This document shows positions 45,217 to 57,759 of a DNA stretch of 64,000 bases, piece by piece. The DNA lies in NCBI GenBank assembly GCA_011523285.1, contig WTHC01000025.1, positions 11,848-75,847 on the forward strand, read 5' to 3'. The DNA comes from Nitrosopumilaceae archaeon. GTDB lineage: Archaea > Thermoproteota > Nitrososphaeria > Nitrososphaerales > Nitrosopumilaceae. A program made the position numbers and the translations under genes. Each line of letters begins with the position of its first letter. Position 1 is the stretch's first letter. The notes under the pieces were generated by a model. That model was not told where the DNA came from. It ran no database searches and saw only the letters and a list, made by a program, of their open reading frames with translations.

Positions 45217-46431
45217 ATGCAAAAAATTTTTTTGGAATGCAGAGAATGCAAAACTACGTATTCTGCAGATTTTAAATATGTCTGCGAATCTTGTTTTGGA
45301 CCTCTAGATGTTAAGTACGATACTTCATTTACCAAAAATTTATTTGAGAACAGAAATGTAGATACATATTGGAAATATTTTGAACTATTACCAATAGTAG
45401 ATAAATCCAACATAGTAGACATTGGTAGCGGATTGACACCTCTAATTAAAGCTACAAATCTTGGAGCCGAGTTGGGATTAAATAATCTATACATCAAGAA
45501 TGATTCAGTTAACACTACATTTTCATTTAAAGATAGGCCTGCTGGTGTGGCGGTATCTAAAGCCAAAGAATTTAATTTATCTACTGTTGGTTGTGCTTCT
45601 ACTGGTAATCTTGCATCTGCAACTGCTGCACATGCTGCAAAAGGTAGACTCAAATGTTTAATATTTGCACCAAAAAATATAGAGCAACCTAAAATTACAC
45701 AAGCTATTTCATATGGTGCTGAATATATAGCAATTGATGGCACATATGACGACTCCAATCGAATTGCTGCACAAATTGGAGATCAACATAAAATAGGTGT
45801 AGTGAATATAAATCTACGTTCGTATTATACTGAAGGTTCCAAAACATTAGCATTTGAAGTGGCAGATCAATTAGGGTGGGATGTACCAGATCATCTAGTC
45901 ATTCCAGTTGGAAGCGGCGCTATGTTAAATTCTATATGTAAAGGATTTGAAGAATTAGAAAATATTTCATTGTTGAAAGATACATCTAATATACATATAG
46001 CTGCAGCCCAACCATATGGATGTGCTCCTATAGTAAATGCATTCAAAAACAAAACAAATACAATAAAGCCTATAGAATACCCTGATACTATAGCTAAAAG
46101 CCTAGCTATAGGTGATCCTGGAGATGGTCGATATGTGATTAAAAGACTCTCTCAATATCATGGATATGCTGAAGATTGTAATAACAATGAAATTATAGAT
46201 TCCATTATACTACTTGCTAAAACTGAAGGTATCTTCACAGAACCTGCAGGTGGAGTTTCTATCGCAGTACTTCGTAAAATGGTTGAGAATAAAATGATCG
46301 ATAAAAACGATCAGACAATATGTTTTATAACTGGCAACGGATTAAAATCACCAGATTCATTGTTCGATATAATTCCAAAACCTAAAATAGCCCAACCAAA
46401 TATTGAAAAAATATTATCTATTATGAGGTAA
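45217..46431 (+). CDS. thrC: Threonine synthase-family PLP enzyme with an N-terminal zinc ribbon
   Basis: LECRECKTTYSADFKYVCESCFGPLDV (C4 ribbon), FSFKDRPA (PLP lysine), CASTGN and GSGA. 404 aa, the short archaeal ThrC architecture. It may instead be a ThrC-like sulfur-incorporating enzyme (see findings). Confidence 0.8.
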   Translation: MQKIFLECRECKTTYSADFKYVCESCFGPLDVKYDTSFTKNLFENRNVDTYWKYFELLPIVDKSNIVDIGSGLTPLIKATNLGAELGLNNLYIKNDSVNTTFSFKDRPAGVAVSKAKEFNLSTVGCASTGNLASATAAHAAKGRLKCLIFAPKNIEQPKITQAISYGAEYIAIDGTYDDSNRIAAQIGDQHKIGVVNINLRSYYTEGSKTLAFEVADQLGWDVPDHLVIPVGSGAMLNSICKGFEELENISLLKDTSNIHIAAAQPYGCAPIVNAFKNKTNTIKPIEYPDTIAKSLAIGDPGDGRYVIKRLSQYHGYAEDCNNNEIIDSIILLAKTEGIFTEPAGGVSIAVLRKMVENKMIDKNDQTICFITGNGLKSPDSLFDIIPKPKIAQPNIEKILSIMR

Positions 46432-46438
46432 ATTATAA

Positions 46439-47779
46439 TTGGTAAATGTAGTCTTCACAATACCGTCAGTACTGAACCAAGGCAACGGTGAAAAAAAAAT
46501 ACCCATTACTTCTGATAAACTTACATTATTAGATGCTTTTACTAAAATTTCTAATGATTTAGGCCCTGCTTTTAAAAATAGAGTTTTAAACCCAGACGGC
46601 TCTCCTAAATCTCTTATTAATGTGTATATAAATGGTAAGAACGCCCAATTTTCTAACGGCATGAATACAATTCTCAATGATGGAGATGAAGTTTATATGC
46701 TTCCTGCTGTTTCTGGAGGAGATAACTTGTCTGAAAATGAACTCACTCGATATTCCAGACAAATAATGCTAGAAAATATAGGTTATGAAGGACAATTGAA
46801 AATCAAAAATTCATCTGTATGCGTTATTGGAGTTGGTGGATTGGGAAACCCTATCGCTTCTAGATTGGCAGCTATGGGTGTAGGTAAAATAAGAATAGTG
46901 GATCGAGATGTAATCGAATTATCTAATCTTCATAGACAAACAATGTTTAATGATTGTGATATTGGCAAAATAAAAGTTGAAACTGCCAAGAATAAATTAC
47001 AAAATATTAATCCCACGATGACAATAGAAGCCCTTTCCGTTTCAATAAATGACTATAATGCATTAGATGTGATCCATGATTGCGATATAGTAATAGACGC
47101 GCTTGATAGTGTGAATGCTAGATACTCAATTAACAAAGCTTGTGTTAGATCTAACATTCCATTTGTAACTGGAGCAGCTGTTGGAACTTCTGGTCAATGC
47201 TTTACAGTAATACCAAATAAAACAGCTTGTTATTACTGTGTATTTCCTAGCTTGGATGAAAATTCTATGCCGACTTGTAGTATTGAAGGAGTACACCCAT
47301 CAATATTATCAGTCGTTGCAGGTATTGAAGTATCTGAAGCTATTAAAATAATATTGGACAAAAAACCTAATCTATTAAATAAAATCTTACATATAGATTT
47401 AGACACATTAAATTTCACACATATAAATACATTCAAAGTATCTGAATGTCCTGTCTGTGGAACTGGCAAGACTAGTGATAAAGTTATAAAAGAAAAACTC
47501 ATGATCGAAGAATTATGTGGCCGAAATGGCAAAAGGACATTCTCTATCACTCCTACTAATAGTAATTTGCATTTGGATCTAAATAAAATTGCCAAGTTGT
47601 CAACAACAAATGTATACAAGATAGAAAATCAAAGTAATTTTGGTATATCAATCCGCTCTGCAGATTTTTATATTAATATTATGCAAAGAGGTTCTGCTAT
47701 TATAACAGGAACTAAAACAGAAGATGATGCAATTTCATTATATGAAAGATTTGTTAGTAAAATAATGGTCAACAATTAA
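46439..47779 (+). CDS. Fusion protein: MoaD/ThiS-like ubiquitin-fold domain (ends ...LPAVSGG) + ThiF/MoeB/UbaA-type E1-like adenylyltransferase + ~90-aa C-terminal domain
   Basis: Residues 1-94 end in DGDEVYMLPAVSGG, the canonical MoaD C-terminus, with GG codons at 46715-46720 and no stop. It continues with LTRYSRQIML..IG..GQ..I....V.VIGVGGLG, DRDVIELSNLHRQ, CYYC...PTCSIEGV...CPVCG (E1 Zn site and loop Cys). TTG start lies 7 nt after the thrC stop. Confidence 0.8.
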   Translation: MVNVVFTIPSVLNQGNGEKKIPITSDKLTLLDAFTKISNDLGPAFKNRVLNPDGSPKSLINVYINGKNAQFSNGMNTILNDGDEVYMLPAVSGGDNLSENELTRYSRQIMLENIGYEGQLKIKNSSVCVIGVGGLGNPIASRLAAMGVGKIRIVDRDVIELSNLHRQTMFNDCDIGKIKVETAKNKLQNINPTMTIEALSVSINDYNALDVIHDCDIVIDALDSVNARYSINKACVRSNIPFVTGAAVGTSGQCFTVIPNKTACYYCVFPSLDENSMPTCSIEGVHPSILSVVAGIEVSEAIKIILDKKPNLLNKILHIDLDTLNFTHINTFKVSECPVCGTGKTSDKVIKEKLMIEELCGRNGKRTFSITPTNSNLHLDLNKIAKLSTTNVYKIENQSNFGISIRSADFYINIMQRGSAIITGTKTEDDAISLYERFVSKIMVNN

Positions 47780-48939: not shown

Positions 48940-51900
48940 ATGAATAACGAAATAATCCGTAAATTAACTAGTCTTACACTAATGACAATAATGATAGCAG
49001 GAGGACTAACATTCTCTATACCAGCAATTGTACCACAAGCAAATGCAACTAATGTTAATCTATTTGTGTCTGCAGAAAATTCGCAATTCGCGAATTATTT
49101 CGCAGGTCCAATGATTGTAGAAGTTGTAATAATTGATTCTACTATAGGCTCTACAAATACAGATGTTGGAGAACCCAATGTGACAGTAAATGGAAAGAGC
49201 TTACGTATGGCTCAAGCTACAGATGGTAATTGGTATGGTTATTTTGCAGACAAAAAACAAGCTCAAATAGCTGATGAAATACAAAGTAGTGGAGCTACTG
49301 GCAGTGGATTAGACTTTGGTGCATTTTGTAGTAACGCCACAGATATATCTAATGGTACATTCACCATTGATTTGTCTGGAAGTACAGGAATATCTGTACC
49401 TAGTGCTACTACAGGAAGCTCTCAAGGCACTGATCCAATAACAAGTGCATGTACAATCTCGCCAGGTGATACTATGAACGTATTAAGACAGGAAAAAACA
49501 TTAAATGATAATGACAATATAAGTGGTCCAGGACAAATTGATGTAAATCAAAATGCATGGCCATTTATACAGTTATATGATTTTACAGCTGGCAGTAATG
49601 TAGTTGTACAATATAACAAAGGTAACGAAGTACAAAATACTATTTTGACATTTTCATCATCATCGCAATTTGCAAGTTTGGATTTAGATAGGGCAAAATA
49701 CCCACAGGGTTCACAAGTTAATTTCACAATAACAGATCAACAATTAAATATTGATCCAACTGACATAGACTCTTGGACATTTGGTACTGAACAAAGTAAT
49801 CTGTCTACACAGTATCTGATTTTTAATAAAAATGGAGAAAATGTAGCGGATACACTTGGCGCATCTGCAAATATAAATAATTCATTAAGTGAACTAATGT
49901 TCTCTGGTAATGGTGTATTAAGTATAAATGCTGATGCACAAGGATCTGGCAATGTAATAAACATAGTAAATAATAATGATCAAATGATCATTGGCGAACA
50001 AGCTGATTCCGTCGCAACAGTAGGTGGTGCGTTGGCATCTGGAACACAACCAATAACAATCACAGAAATTGCACCAAATGCAGGTATCTTTACAAATTAT
50101 GACGAGACAAACAACGCCAATGTTGTGATAACCGAAAATGCTGATAGAGGAACATCTGCAACCATAAATTACAATGGTCCTCAAAGTGTTTTAGTTGGAT
50201 ATGGATTTGCAACAATTGATATGAATTCACCTAACGATCAATGGAGTTCAGGAGAAAAATTATCAGTTGTACTTGTAGATTCTGATGCAAATAAAAATAC
50301 TCGAGTCAACGAAACATTAAACGTAAATGATTCTAATGTATCGTTAATTCCAGCATTAAGTACAGGTGATCCATTCACACTTGGTGAATCTGGTGTAGAA
50401 AATAACACTAAAGTCAAAGCTGCATATACATCAACATCAACCATTACAAGAACAGGAAATAATAGTACAATTACAGAATTAACTGATACTGGATTAAATA
50501 CCTCAGTTATAGTACAGAAATTCAGTGAACGTGCATTGATCTCTACCAATAACATCGATTCACAAGTCGGTGGACTTGTTATAGATCTAGCCACAACAGC
50601 TGAAGAACTACGTAATTCAATACAGAATCCAAACACAGAAAAATTCAACGGTATAAATCTATTTAATTATGATATTAGTTCTATAATAGATTCAACTAAT
50701 AGTGTTGAAGTTTATTTAGTTGCTAATGCCAATGATGAAATAATAGATAATAACGTGATAGCTACACCATTGCAAGGAGTATTATTATTCAATACGAATG
50801 CACCAAAAGGATTAGTAGATCTTAGTTCTACACAATCTGGAATTCAAAACCCAGACGATGTTAATGAATTGATCTTTAGCTTAGATGATGATACATCAAT
50901 AGGCTTGTATTTCAATTTCAATGACAATGTTGAATTAAAATCAAACACAAATCCTATTGTAGCAGATTTCTTCACCTTTGGATTTAATGATGATGGTATA
51001 CAATCTAATGAAAGAATCGCAAACCAAATAATTAGATTCGAATTAACTGAAAATGGCGCTAACACAAGTACATTTGAAGGTACTGTAGAATATACAATGA
51101 TCAATCAATTGAATATTCTAAATAGCAGTACATACAATAATCTAAACACAATATCTGCAAATCCTAAGTTTATAGTAAATGAAGATTTACGTGACGACGA
51201 TGCCCCTAGAATAAATTACTATGATCTAGGTGCAGATGGTGTGTATACACAAATAGCCGATCAAAAAGAAGCTATATCACATTCAGGTATAATATCATTA
51301 GATTCTAACACGTACAAAGTAGCTGACACAGTATTAGTAACACTAGAAGATCAAGACTTAAATCAAGATAATGGCTTAATCGAGATCTATACCGTTGTAA
51401 GAAAACAAAATGATCCGGCCTTTGATACAGTGGGAACGTCTGATTTACCAGTATTAAGTTTCGGCCCATTAGGAAAACTTGTTAGCATTACTTTTGATGA
51501 CGAACTATGGGCTTCATCATCTGAAGTGATTAATGGCATGTCATGTACTGACAATGGTAATACAAATAACGATGGACTTGGATCTACAGGTTTCACATTA
51601 ATTGAAACAGGACCTTCCACAGGTATATTCGAAGGTAATTTCAAAATCCCTGAAACATATTGTGCTAGATCACAAGGAGGCAAAGTTTTGTCAGTAACTG
51701 GTACCGATATAGAAGTCAACTATTTTGATTTTAGAGACGAATCTGGAGAAATCATTGAAGTAAGTAGCGGTGCAGGAATAAGAGCACATACTGGTTCTAT
51801 AAGCTTAGACAGAACTGTGTATCCAGTACCATGGGGAGAAGTTAAAGACTTTGATAATTCAACATCATCATCACCAAATGGCCGTTCAGTATTTCCAATC

Positions 51901-54018
51901 CATGTGACTGGAATAGATGGCACATTAGATAATAGTGATAGTAATGGTAATCCATTAGCAGAAACATTAGGTAATGGTGATTTGACAATTCATGTCAGAA
52001 TCAACGATCCTGATTTCGATGTTTCATCTAGTGGTGAAGATGCAATAGAAACTGATTTGATCGGTAAAGAATACGGTCCAGTTAAAATTACTATCTCACG
52101 TGGTTCTGATGAAATGATATTAGCATATGCTGGTGGTTCTACACCTCAAACTGGTTTAATCGATGTAGATGGTAATGATATCGATGGTTCTGGAGTACTG
52201 CAACTTGGAGCAATTACAGAAATTGCACCAGATAGCGGTATTTTCGAATTAGATTTTGTTGTCAGATATACAGATGGACCAGCGTCTAGAATATGTCCAG
52301 ATACTAATGCGTATGTTGCATTAGATAATAGCATTACAACAGACTTGAATGATCCGAAAATAAGATTCGATGATGATCCAGAAGAAGGTAGTGATTTTTG
52401 TATATTACAAGGTGATATAATCACAGTAGAATATACTGATCCTACAGATGCATCAGGAGATCCAAATACTGTGACAGATTCCGCTACATTTGATTTACGT
52501 AATGGTGTACTACAATCTGATAAATCCGTCTACATAGTAGGAAGCGATCTAATCCTTACAATAATAGAACCTGACTGGGACTTAGATAATGATACTGCTG
52601 AAACATATACTTTAGATATTGTTGAATGGAGCTCTGATGCTGCAACAGTTACAATGGGCAATGCTGGTAAAAACTTAACTGCTTTTGATCCAGAACCCAC
52701 TGATTTCAGAGAGACAGGAGACAGTACAGGTATATTCCAAACAATAGTTGAAATTCCAGAAAAACTATCAGGTGATAGCTTGGAACGTGGAGAAAAGATT
52801 ACATTAGAATATACTGATTGGGGACCATCAGGCAGTGATTATGTTGGAGAAGAAGATGAAGATATTAGTATCTCTGTCTTCACATCTAATTTTGGAGCAA
52901 CAGTAGAACTTGATCAGAAAGTTTACACTTGGAATGATAAAGTCTACGTCACAATTGTTGCACCAGATCATAATTTCGATGCCAATCTAATTGATGAAAT
53001 TGGTGATTCTGACGATAATCCAATCAAAATTTCAACACGTGGAAATGATCTTAATAACTACAAGTTAGTTGAAACCGGTACTAATACAGGCATATTTACT
53101 GGAGAATTAATCCTAACAGGATTTAATTTTGATGCAGATGGTAATACAAATACCGGTGAATTTGGAACAGGTTTTGATACTAAACCAAGAACAGATGGTA
53201 CTGGACCTACAGATGGATATCTACAAGCAGATAATGATGATGGAATAACCGTTTCATTTGAATATTCTGAAGATGAAACTGTAGTTGGTTCAGCATTAGT
53301 TCGTTGGAATATAGGTGAAGTACAATGGCTTGAAGCAAGTTACCCAGCAAGTGGTAATGGTGTAGTTAGAGTAATAGATCCTGATATGAATTTGAATCCA
53401 GAAGCAGTAGATAATTTCGATGTTGACGTATGGTCTGACTCTGATTCTGGAGGCGTAGATCTTACTGTCACAGAAACTAATGAAGCTACTGGTATATTCG
53501 AAGGTACAGTATTCTTTACTACTAGTGATGAATCTTCAGGACATAGACTTCGAGTTACTGAAGGTGATACAACCACAGTAGAGTACGAAGATAATACTTT
53601 ACCAGATCCATATACTACTGCAGATGAATTAGATATCACTGCTACCACCATAATAGGTACGATAGTTCCTCCATTAGAGAGAGCTCCTGCATCTAACGCT
53701 CATATTGTTGATGCATTTGGAAACTCTTTGGACGAAGTATCTGTAGATCAACAAGTCCAAATCACTTCTGACCTAACTAATAACCAAAATCAAGAACAAC
53801 AATTTGCATATTTAGTGCAAATTCAAGATGACAATGGTGTCACCGTTTCATTAGCATGGATCACTGGTTCATTGTCTTCAGGACAAACCTTTAGCCCGGC
53901 ATTGTCATGGATACCATCTTCCACTGGAACATATACTGCAACAGCATTTGTATGGGAAAGTGTGGATAATCCTACTGCATTATCTCCAACTGTAACAGTA
54001 ACTATCAACGTGATATAA
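48940..54018 (+). CDS. Giant secreted acidic surface protein, probable S-layer protein
   Basis: 1692 aa. N-terminal signal-like segment (LTSLTLMTIMIAGGLTFSIPAIVPQANA) and no C-terminal TM. It is rich in D/E/T/S/N/G and poor in K/R, with many N-x-S/T sequons. There are repeated beta-sandwich-like modules and only six Cys after the signal peptide. It sits next to complex III genes, as I recall for the Nitrosopumilus S-layer gene. Confidence 0.75.
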   Translation: MNNEIIRKLTSLTLMTIMIAGGLTFSIPAIVPQANATNVNLFVSAENSQFANYFAGPMIVEVVIIDSTIGSTNTDVGEPNVTVNGKSLRMAQATDGNWYGYFADKKQAQIADEIQSSGATGSGLDFGAFCSNATDISNGTFTIDLSGSTGISVPSATTGSSQGTDPITSACTISPGDTMNVLRQEKTLNDNDNISGPGQIDVNQNAWPFIQLYDFTAGSNVVVQYNKGNEVQNTILTFSSSSQFASLDLDRAKYPQGSQVNFTITDQQLNIDPTDIDSWTFGTEQSNLSTQYLIFNKNGENVADTLGASANINNSLSELMFSGNGVLSINADAQGSGNVINIVNNNDQMIIGEQADSVATVGGALASGTQPITITEIAPNAGIFTNYDETNNANVVITENADRGTSATINYNGPQSVLVGYGFATIDMNSPNDQWSSGEKLSVVLVDSDANKNTRVNETLNVNDSNVSLIPALSTGDPFTLGESGVENNTKVKAAYTSTSTITRTGNNSTITELTDTGLNTSVIVQKFSERALISTNNIDSQVGGLVIDLATTAEELRNSIQNPNTEKFNGINLFNYDISSIIDSTNSVEVYLVANANDEIIDNNVIATPLQGVLLFNTNAPKGLVDLSSTQSGIQNPDDVNELIFSLDDDTSIGLYFNFNDNVELKSNTNPIVADFFTFGFNDDGIQSNERIANQIIRFELTENGANTSTFEGTVEYTMINQLNILNSSTYNNLNTISANPKFIVNEDLRDDDAPRINYYDLGADGVYTQIADQKEAISHSGIISLDSNTYKVADTVLVTLEDQDLNQDNGLIEIYTVVRKQNDPAFDTVGTSDLPVLSFGPLGKLVSITFDDELWASSSEVINGMSCTDNGNTNNDGLGSTGFTLIETGPSTGIFEGNFKIPETYCARSQGGKVLSVTGTDIEVNYFDFRDESGEIIEVSSGAGIRAHTGSISLDRTVYPVPWGEVKDFDNSTSSSPNGRSVFPIHVTGIDGTLDNSDSNGNPLAETLGNGDLTIHVRINDPDFDVSSSGEDAIETDLIGKEYGPVKITISRGSDEMILAYAGGSTPQTGLIDVDGNDIDGSGVLQLGAITEIAPDSGIFELDFVVRYTDGPASRICPDTNAYVALDNSITTDLNDPKIRFDDDPEEGSDFCILQGDIITVEYTDPTDASGDPNTVTDSATFDLRNGVLQSDKSVYIVGSDLILTIIEPDWDLDNDTAETYTLDIVEWSSDAATVTMGNAGKNLTAFDPEPTDFRETGDSTGIFQTIVEIPEKLSGDSLERGEKITLEYTDWGPSGSDYVGEEDEDISISVFTSNFGATVELDQKVYTWNDKVYVTIVAPDHNFDANLIDEIGDSDDNPIKISTRGNDLNNYKLVETGTNTGIFTGELILTGFNFDADGNTNTGEFGTGFDTKPRTDGTGPTDGYLQADNDDGITVSFEYSEDETVVGSALVRWNIGEVQWLEASYPASGNGVVRVIDPDMNLNPEAVDNFDVDVWSDSDSGGVDLTVTETNEATGIFEGTVFFTTSDESSGHRLRVTEGDTTTVEYEDNTLPDPYTTADELDITATTIIGTIVPPLERAPASNAHIVDAFGNSLDEVSVDQQVQITSDLTNNQNQEQQFAYLVQIQDDNGVTVSLAWITGSLSSGQTFSPALSWIPSSTGTYTATAFVWESVDNPTALSPTVTVTINVI
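51292..53598 (+). repeat. Tandem array of divergent ~95-220-aa protein modules inside the surface-protein gene
   Basis: Five consecutive modules share the pattern [S/L/E]-x-D/E-x-x-x-Y ... [V/I]-x-[D/E]-P-D-x-[D/N]-x-[D/N] ... E-T-G/N-x-x-T/S-G-I-F ... I-T-V-E-Y-x-D. GIF motifs lie at residues 895, 1100, 1264, 1384 and 1518. Further copies lie upstream at 382 and, degenerate, at ~710. Confidence 0.7.
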
Positions 54019-55241: not shown

Positions 55242-55868
55242 GTGAGCTACATGACAAATAGTGATAATAATAATAAAAATGAAGATAAATCATTATCACG
55301 TAGAGATTTTTTGAAACTTTTAGGTGCAGCTGGAACTGCTTTGGCATTTACGCCTTTTGTACCTTGGGGTAATTATATGCCCAACCCATCAGCGGCAAAT
55401 TTAGAAAAAGTTAAAGTTATTCTTCCAGACGGTACACAAGCTAATGTTAATACTTTCCCAATAAACCATGCTGAGGTTATTACTTATCCAAGTACTGGTG
55501 ATAGAGTTTTAGATGAAGAAGCTTTTAGAAAGTGGCAATTTATAAGATTACCAAAGAAATTAGGTGGAGAAAAAAATGATGTAAGTTCATTTAGAGCATA
55601 TAGTATGGTATGTCTTCATTTATGGTGTTTGTGGAAATATTGGCCTGAAGAAGGACGTATGAGAGGAGAATGCCCTTGTCATGGAAGTATGTATGATCCA
55701 ATGACTGGTAAAGCATTTGCTGGACCTGCCTCTCTACAAGCAGCTCCATCTAACACACTGGCAAAATTAGATTTAGAAGCTGATAATGATGGTTTTCTAT
55801 GGATATTGCCACCTGAATGGGGCGTTAATAACAATGGAGTAGTTGGATATGGCCGTTTCATTAAGTAG
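55242..55868 (+). CDS. Rieske [2Fe-2S] protein with a twin-arginine signal
   Basis: SRRDFLKLLGAAGTALA (Tat motif) plus CLHLWC and CPCHGS Rieske boxes. Confidence 0.9.
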   Translation: MSYMTNSDNNNKNEDKSLSRRDFLKLLGAAGTALAFTPFVPWGNYMPNPSAANLEKVKVILPDGTQANVNTFPINHAEVITYPSTGDRVLDEEAFRKWQFIRLPKKLGGEKNDVSSFRAYSMVCLHLWCLWKYWPEEGRMRGECPCHGSMYDPMTGKAFAGPASLQAAPSNTLAKLDLEADNDGFLWILPPEWGVNNNGVVGYGRFIK

Positions 55869-57240
55869 ACGTACTGGATTAGTGTCATTTCTTTATTGGA
55901 TTTGGGATGGATTAGAAAGAACAGTTTTTACAGCAGTCAAGTTTTCATTTCCTGCAAGATTTGTAAGCCCATTTGGATTTCTTGGGATGTTAACATTTGT
56001 AGTATTTGTGATTCTTGGCATATCTGGTGCTTTACTTATGTTTTATTATCAGCCTATACTAGATCGAGCATGGGACAGCGTTCAATTCATTAATGATGAA
56101 GTTCCTTTTGGATTTCATATACGAAACATTCATTATCATGCGTCCAACGCAATGGTCCTGCTAGCTATATTGCATATGTATTATCAATATTTTAGCGGTC
56201 GATATAAAATTAGAAATGAAATCTTATGGGTGACTGGAGTTATATTAGGGACTGTAACAATTTTGGAAGCTTTTACAGGATATGATGTAATATTTAGTGA
56301 ACGTGCAGAATTGGCTATAAGTATTGCAGCTTCATTAACAAATTCAATACCAATAATAGGACCTACAGTCCGTGATGCTATGTTTGGATCTGGTTTTTCA
56401 GATTTCGTTCTTAGATTTTATGCGCAACATGTATTTATTTTACCAATAGTAATGTTGGGATTAATGGCAGTTCATTTTCCACGCTTCTTGGTATTTGATG
56501 TGCCTATGGTTACTGCTATTGCTGGTGCTATACTGATAACAGGTGGTGTTTTTCCAATAGATCTTGGATTCAAATTTGAACCTACTGTTCCACCAGGTAT
56601 AACAGTTCCAGAATGGTATCTTACAGGACTTTATTCATTTTTAAGAACACAATATGATAAATTTGTTACTGGTGTGCTTTGGCCTGGATTATTTATATTA
56701 TCATTGTTAATTATACCATTTGTAGATAGATATAAGAAATTTTCATGGAAAGATCGACCTATAGTGACTGCTTTTGGAATCACTGGTATAGCACAAATAA
56801 TGGTTACTACTTATTGGGGATTCTATATACCATCTGATACTACAATACCGCTAGTAGAAAGATTAGTTATAGATCCTGTATTCTTATACCTGGTGATGAT
56901 CTTATTGGTGCCTTTGGGATTTGGATTTAGTTATATGATGATTAAAATGGCCCAAGAAGCAGAACGAAAATCAAAATTAGCAAAACAAAACGCCCCTAAA
57001 AAAGTTGCCACGATAAATATATCTCAACAGTGGATCAATTGGATAATAATTGCCCTCATCATATTTCAAGTATTCTTGAATATAGCAGCATATAATGCTG
57101 TACTAACTGGAATGAAGAACATTTCATTATTCTTCACAGGTCTTATTTTGATCGTTTTCGCTGCTCTATTTCATGTTTATAGATACGGCCTAGGCGAATC
57201 CAAGAAATCAATTGCGCTTCAACAAAACACAAATCCATGA
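55843..57240 (+). CDS. Cytochrome b (fused b6 + subunit IV-like, with extra C-terminal helices)
   Basis: Helix B HASNAMVLLAILH (H-x13-H), helix D HVFILPIVMLGLMAVH (H-x14-H), PEWY motif and multiple TM helices. Overlaps the Rieske gene by 26 nt. Confidence 0.9.
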   Translation: MDMAVSLSRRTGLVSFLYWIWDGLERTVFTAVKFSFPARFVSPFGFLGMLTFVVFVILGISGALLMFYYQPILDRAWDSVQFINDEVPFGFHIRNIHYHASNAMVLLAILHMYYQYFSGRYKIRNEILWVTGVILGTVTILEAFTGYDVIFSERAELAISIAASLTNSIPIIGPTVRDAMFGSGFSDFVLRFYAQHVFILPIVMLGLMAVHFPRFLVFDVPMVTAIAGAILITGGVFPIDLGFKFEPTVPPGITVPEWYLTGLYSFLRTQYDKFVTGVLWPGLFILSLLIIPFVDRYKKFSWKDRPIVTAFGITGIAQIMVTTYWGFYIPSDTTIPLVERLVIDPVFLYLVMILLVPLGFGFSYMMIKMAQEAERKSKLAKQNAPKKVATINISQQWINWIIIALIIFQVFLNIAAYNAVLTGMKNISLFFTGLILIVFAALFHVYRYGLGESKKSIALQQNTNP

Positions 57241-57243
57241 TCT

Positions 57244-57759
57244 GTGTTTCCAAAAATTAAAATTTATAAGACTATCATACAGTATAATGACAGATTGAGT
57301 TCTGTTGTTACTAACCATGCTTACGGTATAGGTGTTGTGTCTATAGTAATAGGATTGTCTTTTGGACTACTTTATTATCAGATGTACTATCTTCCTGAAT
57401 CTCTTGCTAAACCAACAGTTTCACATGAGATATTAGAACCTGTTAAAAACACGATAATTGAAATGATTGTTGGTTCTTCTAGTCCTGAACAACAAGATAA
57501 TTTTGTACCAAAATTGGTTAACATCCAACTTGGTATAGATAATCATACAATCTGGAATAATGTAGACGATACTCCGCATACAGTAACTCCAGATCATCGA
57601 GAATCTGATTCTTACAGTGGGGAATTTGGATCTAGTGGAGTAATAAAACCTGGCGACTCGTATGAATTCATATTTACTGAAGAACATGAATTTGAATACC
57701 ATTGTGACCCGCATCCATGGATGACTGGCAAAGTCATAGTTACGAAACAAAGATTTTAA
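57244..57759 (+). CDS. Membrane-anchored type 1 (blue) copper protein, plastocyanin/amicyanin-like
   Basis: N-terminal TM (GIGVVSIVIGLSFGLLYY). Copper ligands are HTVT ... YHCDPHPWMTGKV (C-x2-H-x2-M). Confidence 0.85.
   Translation: MFPKIKIYKTIIQYNDRLSSVVTNHAYGIGVVSIVIGLSFGLLYYQMYYLPESLAKPTVSHEILEPVKNTIIEMIVGSSSPEQQDNFVPKLVNIQLGIDNHTIWNNVDDTPHTVTPDHRESDSYSGEFGSSGVIKPGDSYEFIFTEEHEFEYHCDPHPWMTGKVIVTKQRF

Follow-up and report, generated by a model that had tools for sequence, protein, structure and literature searches.

An internal diglycine between a ubiquitin-fold sulfur carrier and an E1-like enzyme encoded beside a threonine synthase-like gene in Nitrosopumilaceae

We analysed 64,000 nucleotides of DNA from a Nitrosopumilaceae archaeon (NCBI GenBank assembly GCA_011523285.1, contig WTHC01000025.1, positions 11,848 to 75,847 of the forward strand), referred to below as the window, which has a G+C content of 30.4%. 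The gene under study lies on the plus strand at 46439–47779 and encodes, in a single continuous reading frame, a protein of 446 amino acids in which a ubiquitin-like (Ubl) sulfur-carrier domain, an E1-like adenylyltransferase domain and a TBP-like domain follow one another. It starts with a TTG codon, the N-terminus of its product aligns with the Met-Ala-Asn start of orthologues, and the stop codon at 47777–47779 is the first in frame. The ubiquitin-fold (beta-grasp) carrier, which is CysO/SAMP1-like, spans 46439–46720 (residues 1–94) and ends in LPAVSGG, so that Gly93-Gly94 (46715–46720) form an internal diglycine (GG), with a predicted cleavage site after Gly94. A junction of two residues, Asp95-Asn96 (46721–46726), leads to the natural N-terminus of the E1-like domain of the MoeB/ThiF/UbaA type (46727–47473, residues 97–345), in which the Rossmann nucleotide-binding motif VIGVGGLG occupies 46823–46846 (residues 129–136). 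Cys280 (47276–47278), which lies in the loop that follows the first CxxC pair, corresponds to C187 of MoeB and C184 of ThiF. The C-terminal TBP-like domain together with the stop codon covers 47507–47779 (residues 357–446), and its start carries the conserved Cys360 within an EELCGR motif (47504–47521, residues 356–361). Upstream on the same strand, a ThrC-like pyridoxal phosphate (PLP) enzyme of 404 amino acids with an N-terminal Cys4 zinc-ribbon-like motif is encoded at 45217–46431, ending 7 nt before the fusion gene. Direct reading bore out what an earlier note on this DNA had reported: the GG codons GGA GGA are followed in frame by GAT AAC TTG TCT with no stop, and the Rossmann motif begins about 35 residues past the GG.

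The N-terminal domain has the features of a genuine ThiS/MoaD-type carrier, as the sequence profiles indicate. The Pfam ThiS match (residues 56–94, score 32.8 against a cut-off of 22.5) ends on the last profile position (76/76), and two NCBIfam matches covering residues 17–94, SAMP1 (E 4.8e-13) and moaD_arch, likewise end on Gly94 at their last positions (91/91 and 88/88), although the SAMP1 score of 49.5 misses the equivalog cut-off of 60. The closest PDB sequence for residues 1–94 is Mycobacterium tuberculosis CysO (3dwg_C, E 5.5e-10, full length), followed by 4n6e_B, titled a ThiS/MoaD family protein, and a Methanosarcina SAMP1 homologue; the match to Haloferax volcanii SAMP1 is weak (E 0.015). 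An AlphaFold 2 (AF2) model built from 103 diverse sequences (mean pLDDT 93.9, pTM 0.85) gives the domain a pLDDT of 88–97 over residues 1–90 and a beta-beta-alpha-alpha-beta-beta secondary structure; a model from 24 close orthologues reached a pLDDT of only 59.7. Profiles, CysO alignment and modelled secondary structure thus agree on a beta-grasp domain of about 90 residues with G93-G94 as its last two profile positions, as the earlier note had proposed.

The GG is invariant in three alignments of 24, 12 and 63 orthologues, and the tail at residues 86–94 (Y-I-L-P-A-V-A-G-G) is the best-conserved stretch of the protein, at 97.5%. Among the 63 orthologues, mean pairwise identity is 0.76 for the Ubl, 0.78 for the E1 and 0.68 for the C-terminal domain. 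Across 85 junctions the GG is written with 12 different synonymous codon pairs, and selection therefore acts on the protein and not on an RNA signal. The adenylation chemistry of MoaD/ThiS-type carriers requires a free glycine carboxylate. In the encoded polypeptide 352 residues continue past the GG, and release after the GG is therefore a logical requirement if the carrier is to be used as such.

The E1 domain looks active, judging from its catalytic motifs, which are intact. It matches Pfam ThiF over residues 105–338 (E 3.5e-75), and Foldseek places the model close to ThiF (1zfn, 1zud; target-normalised TM score 0.94–0.96) and MoeB (1jw9_B; 0.95), with root-mean-square deviations of 1.2–2.0 Å. 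Aligned with Escherichia coli MoeB, R104 and R107 (RYSRQ) correspond to R11 and R14, Cys280 to C187, and C264/C267 and C337/C340 to the two CxxC pairs. Across 103 diverse relatives the three glycines of the GxGxxG motif (G131, G133, G136) never vary, the two arginines and both CxxC pairs are conserved, and Cys280 is at least 90% conserved. Leu97 aligns with MoeB L4, so the carrier is joined almost directly to the natural E1 N-terminus. The NCBIfam model for the SAMP-activating E1 (UbaA) scores 209 against a cut-off of 450, and the MoeB equivalog cut-offs are also unreached. The C-terminal domain, called TBP-like by Makarova & Koonin (PMC2948915), matches Pfam TBP over residues 375–442 (E 8.9e-5, slightly under the cut-off) and the TBP of PDB entry 1mp9 (E 4.4e-4), is modelled at a pLDDT of 78–96, and is spanned jointly with the E1 by NCBIfam PRK12475 (residues 103–439). 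At least 90% of 103 diverse E1-TBP proteins share Cys360, which might be a persulfide or sulfur-relay residue, an idea that arises because E1s of this type have no rhodanese domain. By its domain order and its Nitrosopumilaceae nearest relatives, the protein belongs to the thaumarchaeal Ubl-E1-TBP class (arCOG00536 plus arCOG01676).

Since the earlier note had raised the possibility of a lost stop codon, we examined how widely the fusion occurs. In a search of a 5.8-billion-protein collection, the best 120 matches, which were those inspected, are all 437–450 amino acids long and all contain both ThiS and ThiF domains; the identical protein is found on 6 contigs (10 member sequences). A scan of GTDB, one genome per species, found 434 relatives; the best 80 loci, which were kept, come from Nitrosopumilus, Nitrosarchaeum, Nitrosotenuis, Nitrosotalea and other Nitrosopumilaceae and include complete chromosomes. 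All 80 loci are continuous from residue 1–3 to about residue 440, and 78 of them, like the window, show the junction in frame with no stop after the GG. The gene is 61–65% identical to the Nitrosopumilus, Nitrosarchaeum and Nitrosotalea loci, and a representative search returned more distant fused proteins at 53, 52, 42 and 43% identity (P0121–P0124). Loss of a stop codon is thereby excluded as the origin of the fusion. The residues after the GG vary (SE, SEE, SGE, SDE, DN in the window, EQK in its closest relative), as does the length of the junction, from 2 to 17 residues. The first residue after the GG is Ser in 59 of 63 orthologues and Asp, Glu or Ala in the others.

Several unusual forms were seen along the way. 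The longest junction, of 17 residues and very acidic (DDDDGRGDSEEVNNYVE), belongs to the P0122 lineage (L005–L007:6001–7374). P0121, a fused orthologue of 599 amino acids rich in Ala, Gly and Arg, is longer at its C-terminus by some 150 residues, which consist of repeated '...LGRSDEALVAIDRAISLNP...' units that are TPR-like by appearance. On a TARA scaffold (L004:2703–3785), P0126 is an E1-TBP protein without the Ubl, 48% identical to the E1 part of the window protein; its longer open reading frame (ORF) starts MAGGQG-MISDND... and resembles the remnant of an ...AGG junction. Its neighbours are nearly devoid of Pfam matches, one has an HExxH motif, and the scaffold may derive from a marine-archaeal virus or mobile element. 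Two further proteins, P0272 and P0277 (on contigs of 151 kb and 495 kb), end at about 150 residues with aberrant tails (…GTFTYCR and …GTLTNC), and the contig carrying P0287 (L091) holds duplicated, inverted PALP-ThiS units and a 97-residue Ubl ORF, for which misassembly is suspected. P0272, P0277 and L091 look like frameshift errors or misassembly and not like true split genes.

The existence of such a fusion is not news, and it is less unusual than the earlier note implies. 'Ubl-E1-TBP in Thaumarchaeota' was listed among fusions shared with bacteria in 2010 (Makarova & Koonin 2010, PMC2948915), and a MoaD-MoeB fusion (cluster 356.1) was reported in 2024 from 61 of 98 Thaumarchaeota, a few other assemblies, Rokubacteria and NC10, next to MoaD-MoeB-rhodanese fusions found mainly in unclassified Euryarchaeota and Poseidoniales (mSystems 2024, PMC11237513). 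Bacterial fusions of a Ubl to the N-terminus of ThiF had been described still earlier, with the suggestion that JAB peptidases could free ThiS/MoaD moieties from other proteins to which they are fused (Iyer et al. 2006, PMC1779556). The published thaumarchaeal fusion has the same three domains, lineage and gene order as that of the window, which is its orthologue, and nothing structural differs. Both published lists call it a molybdenum cofactor (Moco) or thiamine enzyme and are silent on release at the GG and on linkage to ThrC. What our analysis adds is that linkage, the likeness of the carrier to CysO, the absence of Moco genes from published tables and a parallel family that is both fused and split.

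Gene content in two related species narrows the function. Table S1 of Makarova & Koonin (PMC2948915) lists for Cenarchaeum symbiosum and Nitrosopumilus maritimus no ThiS, two MoaD-family Ubl domains and one E1 each, together with three and five rhodanese proteins respectively and two JAB-family proteins each. MoaA, MoaB, MoaC, MoaE, MoeA and MobA are absent from both species in the same table. The two N. maritimus Ubl entries are the 443-residue fusion and a 257-residue protein, which is taken to be the Cgi121-Ubl fusion described in the same paper, and the two N. maritimus JAB proteins are stand-alone, 133 (arCOG01139) and 130 (arCOG01138) amino acids long, and encoded far from the fusion gene (PMC2948915). 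With so few Ubl domains listed and ThiS absent, the obvious substrate for the only E1 is the fused domain. Given the absence of Moco genes, 'MoaD-MoeB' would be a misnomer, and Moco synthesis would not be the job of the fusion. The gene order in N. maritimus is a 404-residue arCOG01434 gene, the 443-residue fusion and a 1734-residue protein, and C. symbiosum has the same first pair (PMC2948915).

The strongest functional clue, overlooked by the earlier note, is the ThrC-like gene directly upstream. Its product, which belongs to the PLP fold-type II enzymes, matches Pfam PALP (E 1.4e-65) and NCBIfam TIGR00260 thrC (275.8 bits against a cut-off of 167), and threonine synthases lead its PDB matches. 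At 79 of the 80 GTDB loci the gene immediately before the fusion gene, in the same orientation, is an orthologue, the aligned ends being no more than 20 nt apart; at the remaining locus the upstream sequence runs to only 129 nt. The linkage extends to distant fusions, whose ThrC-like neighbours (beside P0122–P0124) are 55–60% identical to that of the window. P0123 and P0124 (tblastn identity 41%) have genes that overlap the ThrC-like ORF, which is upstream and on the same strand in L001–L003, and in P0122 (49% by tblastn; L005–L007) the ThrC-like gene adjoins the fusion gene but is convergent. Neither a Ubl nor a ThrC neighbour was found beside the unfused E1-TBP relatives P0126, P0129 and P0130; the two examined at about 40% identity likewise have no ThrC-like neighbour. 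We found nothing usable in the literature on homocysteine synthesis or a second ThrC in ammonia-oxidising archaea. As a separate observation, a TusA gene (Pfam E 2e-24) stands about 200 nt upstream of the ThrC-like ORF, divergently oriented, in the P0124 lineage (L001:6371–6604, L002:4340–4573), consistent with a sulfur-relay context.

Based on these data, we favour a model, to which we give a probability of roughly 55%, in which the gene encodes a precursor whose carrier is cut free after the GG by a JAMM-type peptidase, thiocarboxylated by the E1 to which it was attached, and used by the ThrC-like enzyme. The Gly94-Asp95 bond would be hydrolysed post-translationally, most likely by a small stand-alone JAMM/JAB metallopeptidase encoded elsewhere in the genome, splitting the protein into a carrier of 94 residues, its Gly-Gly carboxylate now free, and an E1 of 352 residues. 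The E1 would then adenylate the carrier and convert it to a thiocarboxylate, with Cys280, Cys360 or both possibly taking part in a sulfur relay. The thiocarboxylate would supply sulfide to the PLP enzyme whose gene ends 7 nt before the fusion gene, in a reaction akin to that of MetM/MetO (O-phosphohomoserine to homocysteine) or CysM/CysO (O-phosphoserine to cysteine), and the same carrier/E1 pair may also serve thiolation or protein conjugation. Within this model homocysteine is a possible product, one we would sooner bet against than on. The evidence that we cite for the cleaved-carrier model comprises carrier profiles that run to the GG, the conserved tail, the intact E1 and the scarcity of other substrates, along with the JABs available in relatives, the precedent of HvJAMM1, operons of a related family that are split or fused, the PLP linkage and the precedent of MetM/MetO. 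The idea, raised by the earlier note, that fusion gives 1:1 stoichiometry and loading in cis is reasonable, though hypothetical.

CysO is a carrier that feeds the PLP enzyme CysM. The window resembles the CysM-CysO-Mec system of M. tuberculosis in that its carrier is most similar to CysO and a PLP fold-type II enzyme is encoded next to it. MetM of Streptomyces, homologous to ThrC and 'often misannotated' as threonine synthase, makes homocysteine from O-phosphohomoserine and the MetO thiocarboxylate, with Mec (a JAB) and MoeZ supplied from unlinked genes elsewhere (GapMind 2026 preprint). Unlike both systems, the window has a carrier fused to its E1, a TBP-like domain in place of a rhodanese, no linked JAB, and a PLP partner that scores as a bona fide ThrC.

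Cleavage of a linear fusion after an internal GG has a direct precedent. The archaeal JAMM HvJAMM1 cuts linear SAMP1-MoaE exactly after the GG in vitro and in vivo; cleavage fails when GG or VSGG is deleted, and the fusion is inactive unless cleaved. The Hfx. volcanii paper mentions a natural M. tuberculosis Ubl-MoaE fusion as previously reported, and according to the DRJAMM abstract that enzyme was earlier reported to cleave DRMoaD-MoaE. Like these MoaD-MoaE fusions, the window protein has an N-terminal Ubl with an internal GG that needs exposure, but its partner is the activating E1 and not the acceptor MoaE, and Moco genes are absent from the N. maritimus and C. symbiosum table. The comparison with SAMP1/UbaA of Hfx. 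volcanii rests on NCBIfam matches of the same kind, both under their cut-offs, and would allow a dual role in sulfur transfer and conjugation, whereas SAMP1 and UbaA are encoded by separate genes and SAMP1 serves Moco synthesis. The bacterial ThiF fusions likewise carry a Ubl at the N-terminus of the E1 Rossmann domain, but they lie in thiamine operons and their fused Ubl is distinct from ThiS (PMC1779556).

A family of Ubl-E1-rhodanese proteins offers a parallel at greater distance. In every Ubl-E1(-rhodanese) fusion at 32–38% identity the domain boundary still reads [AGS]GG. In the P0193 operon, genes for PALP and Prok-JAB precede the Ubl-E1(-rhodanese) fusion, and in L093 a CysK/M-like gene follows and overlaps the fusion gene. 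A metagenome scan with the Ubl-E1-rhodanese family returned 80 loci, in which the same operon occurs in both states: fused, as in L097 (PALP, Prok-JAB, ThiS-ThiF-Rhodanese), and split, as in L110, where Prok-JAB is followed by a 96-residue ThiS ending ...IAGGKS and a ThiF-Rhodanese gene that starts at the next codon, or in L113 (PALP-JAB-Ubl-E1). Fusion or fission at the GG boundary is therefore evolutionarily easy. A JAB gene lies upstream in 16 of 16 fused Ubl-E1-rhodanese loci with at least 500 nt of upstream sequence. One side find from the distant fusions is L092:221–3657 (P0165), a 337-residue Ubl-E1 fusion without a C-terminal domain, alongside genes for a NIL-ferredoxin protein, a cysteine desulfurase-like aminotransferase and SUF proteins; the NIL-ferredoxin protein is reminiscent of the methanogen homocysteine system.

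No JAB/MPN gene was found in the 64-kb window by motif scan or by a hidden Markov model (HMM) built from 33 JAB ORFs of Ubl-E1-rhodanese operons (best E 0.34), in agreement with the earlier note. Absence from the window does not show absence from the genome, as the published tables list two JABs in each of two relatives. Of the earlier note's reading, that the protein must be cleaved after the GG or use an unusual mechanism, the need for release is supported.

Several points weigh against the model of a cleaved carrier. No JAB was found within about 6 kb of the fusion gene in loci L001–L093, which include all the thaumarchaeal ones; the HMM drew a blank in these loci and in the window (3745 ORFs, best E 0.34). 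In this the thaumarchaeal fusion differs from the Ubl-E1-rhodanese family with its always adjacent JAB. The case for a JAB as the protease comes from analogy and from the JABs tabulated for two other species, and we found no proteomic or biochemical evidence of cleavage. A hunt of low sensitivity for a free-standing orthologue of the carrier gave 17 candidates, all of them fragments or frameshifted copies. Moreover, the E1 of the window has no rhodanese domain, the part that serves sulfur transfer in MoeZ-type enzymes. The ThrC-like protein passes the NCBI threonine-synthase equivalog cut-off and may be a housekeeping threonine synthase, a MetM-like enzyme or both; the MetM family is absent among the 25 best NCBIfam matches listed for it.

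In a rival reading, which we consider unlikely though a serious contender, the Ubl is never released and acts as a built-in structural, regulatory or recruiting module, for example as a pseudo-substrate that fills the Ubl-binding surface or a dock for the ThrC-like enzyme. The E1 would then act on another carrier, such as the Ubl of the Cgi121-Ubl fusion or a small protein that has escaped recognition. A non-carrier role for a fused Ubl is suggested by those bacterial ThiF fusions that coexist with a solo ThiS (PMC1779556), and in Thaumarchaeota a second Ubl exists, fused to Cgi121 (PMC2948915). The lack of a linked JAB, the very short junction, which could fix the arrangement of the domains, and the AF2 pTM of 0.85, which suggests defined inter-domain packing, point the same way. 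A scaffold, however, has no need of an invariant GG and a near-invariant LPAV[AS]GG tail, which are what a substrate needs, and the junction varies from 2 to 17 residues. Furthermore, the tables for N. maritimus and C. symbiosum contain no Ubl encoded on its own (PMC2948915), and the related operon interconverts between split and fused forms exactly at the GG boundary.

Release could also occur without a JAB, if the protein processed itself, perhaps with help from the E1 active site of a dimer, or if an unrelated housekeeping protease cut it; this we judge to be rather improbable. It would account for the lack of a JAB near any thaumarchaeal locus examined, set against 16 of 16 fused loci of the other family. 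The GG abuts the E1 N-terminal helix with its conserved arginines, which in structures of MoeB and other E1s lies near the ATP site of the partner subunit, and Ser is the commonest residue at the +1 position. That position is nevertheless Asp in the window, Glu, Ala or Asp in other orthologues, and Gly, Lys, Ala or Glu in the distant fusions, and an N-to-O or N-to-S acyl shift would therefore lack a conserved nucleophile. This variation leaves self-cleavage by a conserved Ser, Cys or Thr at +1 unsupported. JAB genes are present in related genomes, and we know of no E1 that hydrolyses peptide bonds. A more elaborate version is that in the E1 homodimer the GG-X bond is broken in the adenylation site of the partner without any JAB, each site having one pre-docked carrier, and that together with the ThrC-like enzyme this constitutes the homocysteine/methionine sulfur route of marine ammonia-oxidising archaea. 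We regard it as a long shot.

Two translational products, with a separate E1 made from an internal start or a free carrier made by programmed frameshifting or termination after the GG, seem very improbable. The GGAGGA of the window looks like a Shine-Dalgarno sequence placed six bases ahead of a TTG codon (Leu97), and the -1 frame has a TAA right after the GG. Across the 85 junctions, though, Leu97 is CTA, CTT, TTA or CTG in 79 and TTG in 4, and the GG codons vary over their 12 pairs, on which grounds an internal start at Leu97 was rejected; such a start would still leave the GG without a free carboxylate. A programmed -1 frameshift to TAA or TGA was rejected as well, since the out-of-frame stop varies with the choice of Ser codon and is missing from many species, and no slippery site is conserved. 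As for an artefact, with two genes in reality and a stop after the GG lost in assembly or sequencing, its chance is practically nil: truncated or frameshifted versions do exist in the databases (P0272, P0277, P0284, P0287), but they are contig-end fragments or frameshifted copies, the layout of L091 suggests misassembly, the junctions are in frame, and the fusion is continuous in the best 120 matches and in all 80 GTDB loci, complete chromosomes and named Nitrosotalea and Nitrosopumilus assemblies included, to which published descriptions add N. maritimus SCM1 and C. symbiosum.

The wider neighbourhood contains further genes of note. Histidine-biosynthesis genes (IGPD, His_biosynth, PRA-CH) extend up to the ThrC-like gene in the window, and the P0122 lineage keeps hisF and hisI on the other side, like the window. 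Downstream, 48940–54018 encodes a protein of 1692 amino acids, rich in Thr, Ser, Asp and Asn, with an N-terminal hydrophobic segment and no Pfam match, which may be a surface or S-layer-like protein; its N. maritimus counterpart is the 1734-residue protein downstream of the fusion gene. Further on, genes in a row (55242–57759) encode a TAT signal-bearing Rieske protein, a cytochrome b and a plastocyanin-like copper protein, an arrangement resembling the complex III-like module described for ammonia-oxidising archaea.

Taken at the strength given above, these results bear on how a gene of one of the ocean's most abundant groups of microbes is named. Its annotation as a molybdopterin or thiamine adenylyltransferase is probably wrong, because the tables for two related species list no Moco genes and no ThiS. 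The coupling to ThrC and the CysO-like carrier instead make a testable case for a thiocarboxylate route, like that of MetM/MetO or CysM/CysO, that brings sulfur into an amino acid. If this is true, the fusion gene, and possibly its ThrC-like neighbour, would be re-annotated across the family, and the protein would be a natural example of a Ubl that needs to be cut from its own E1.

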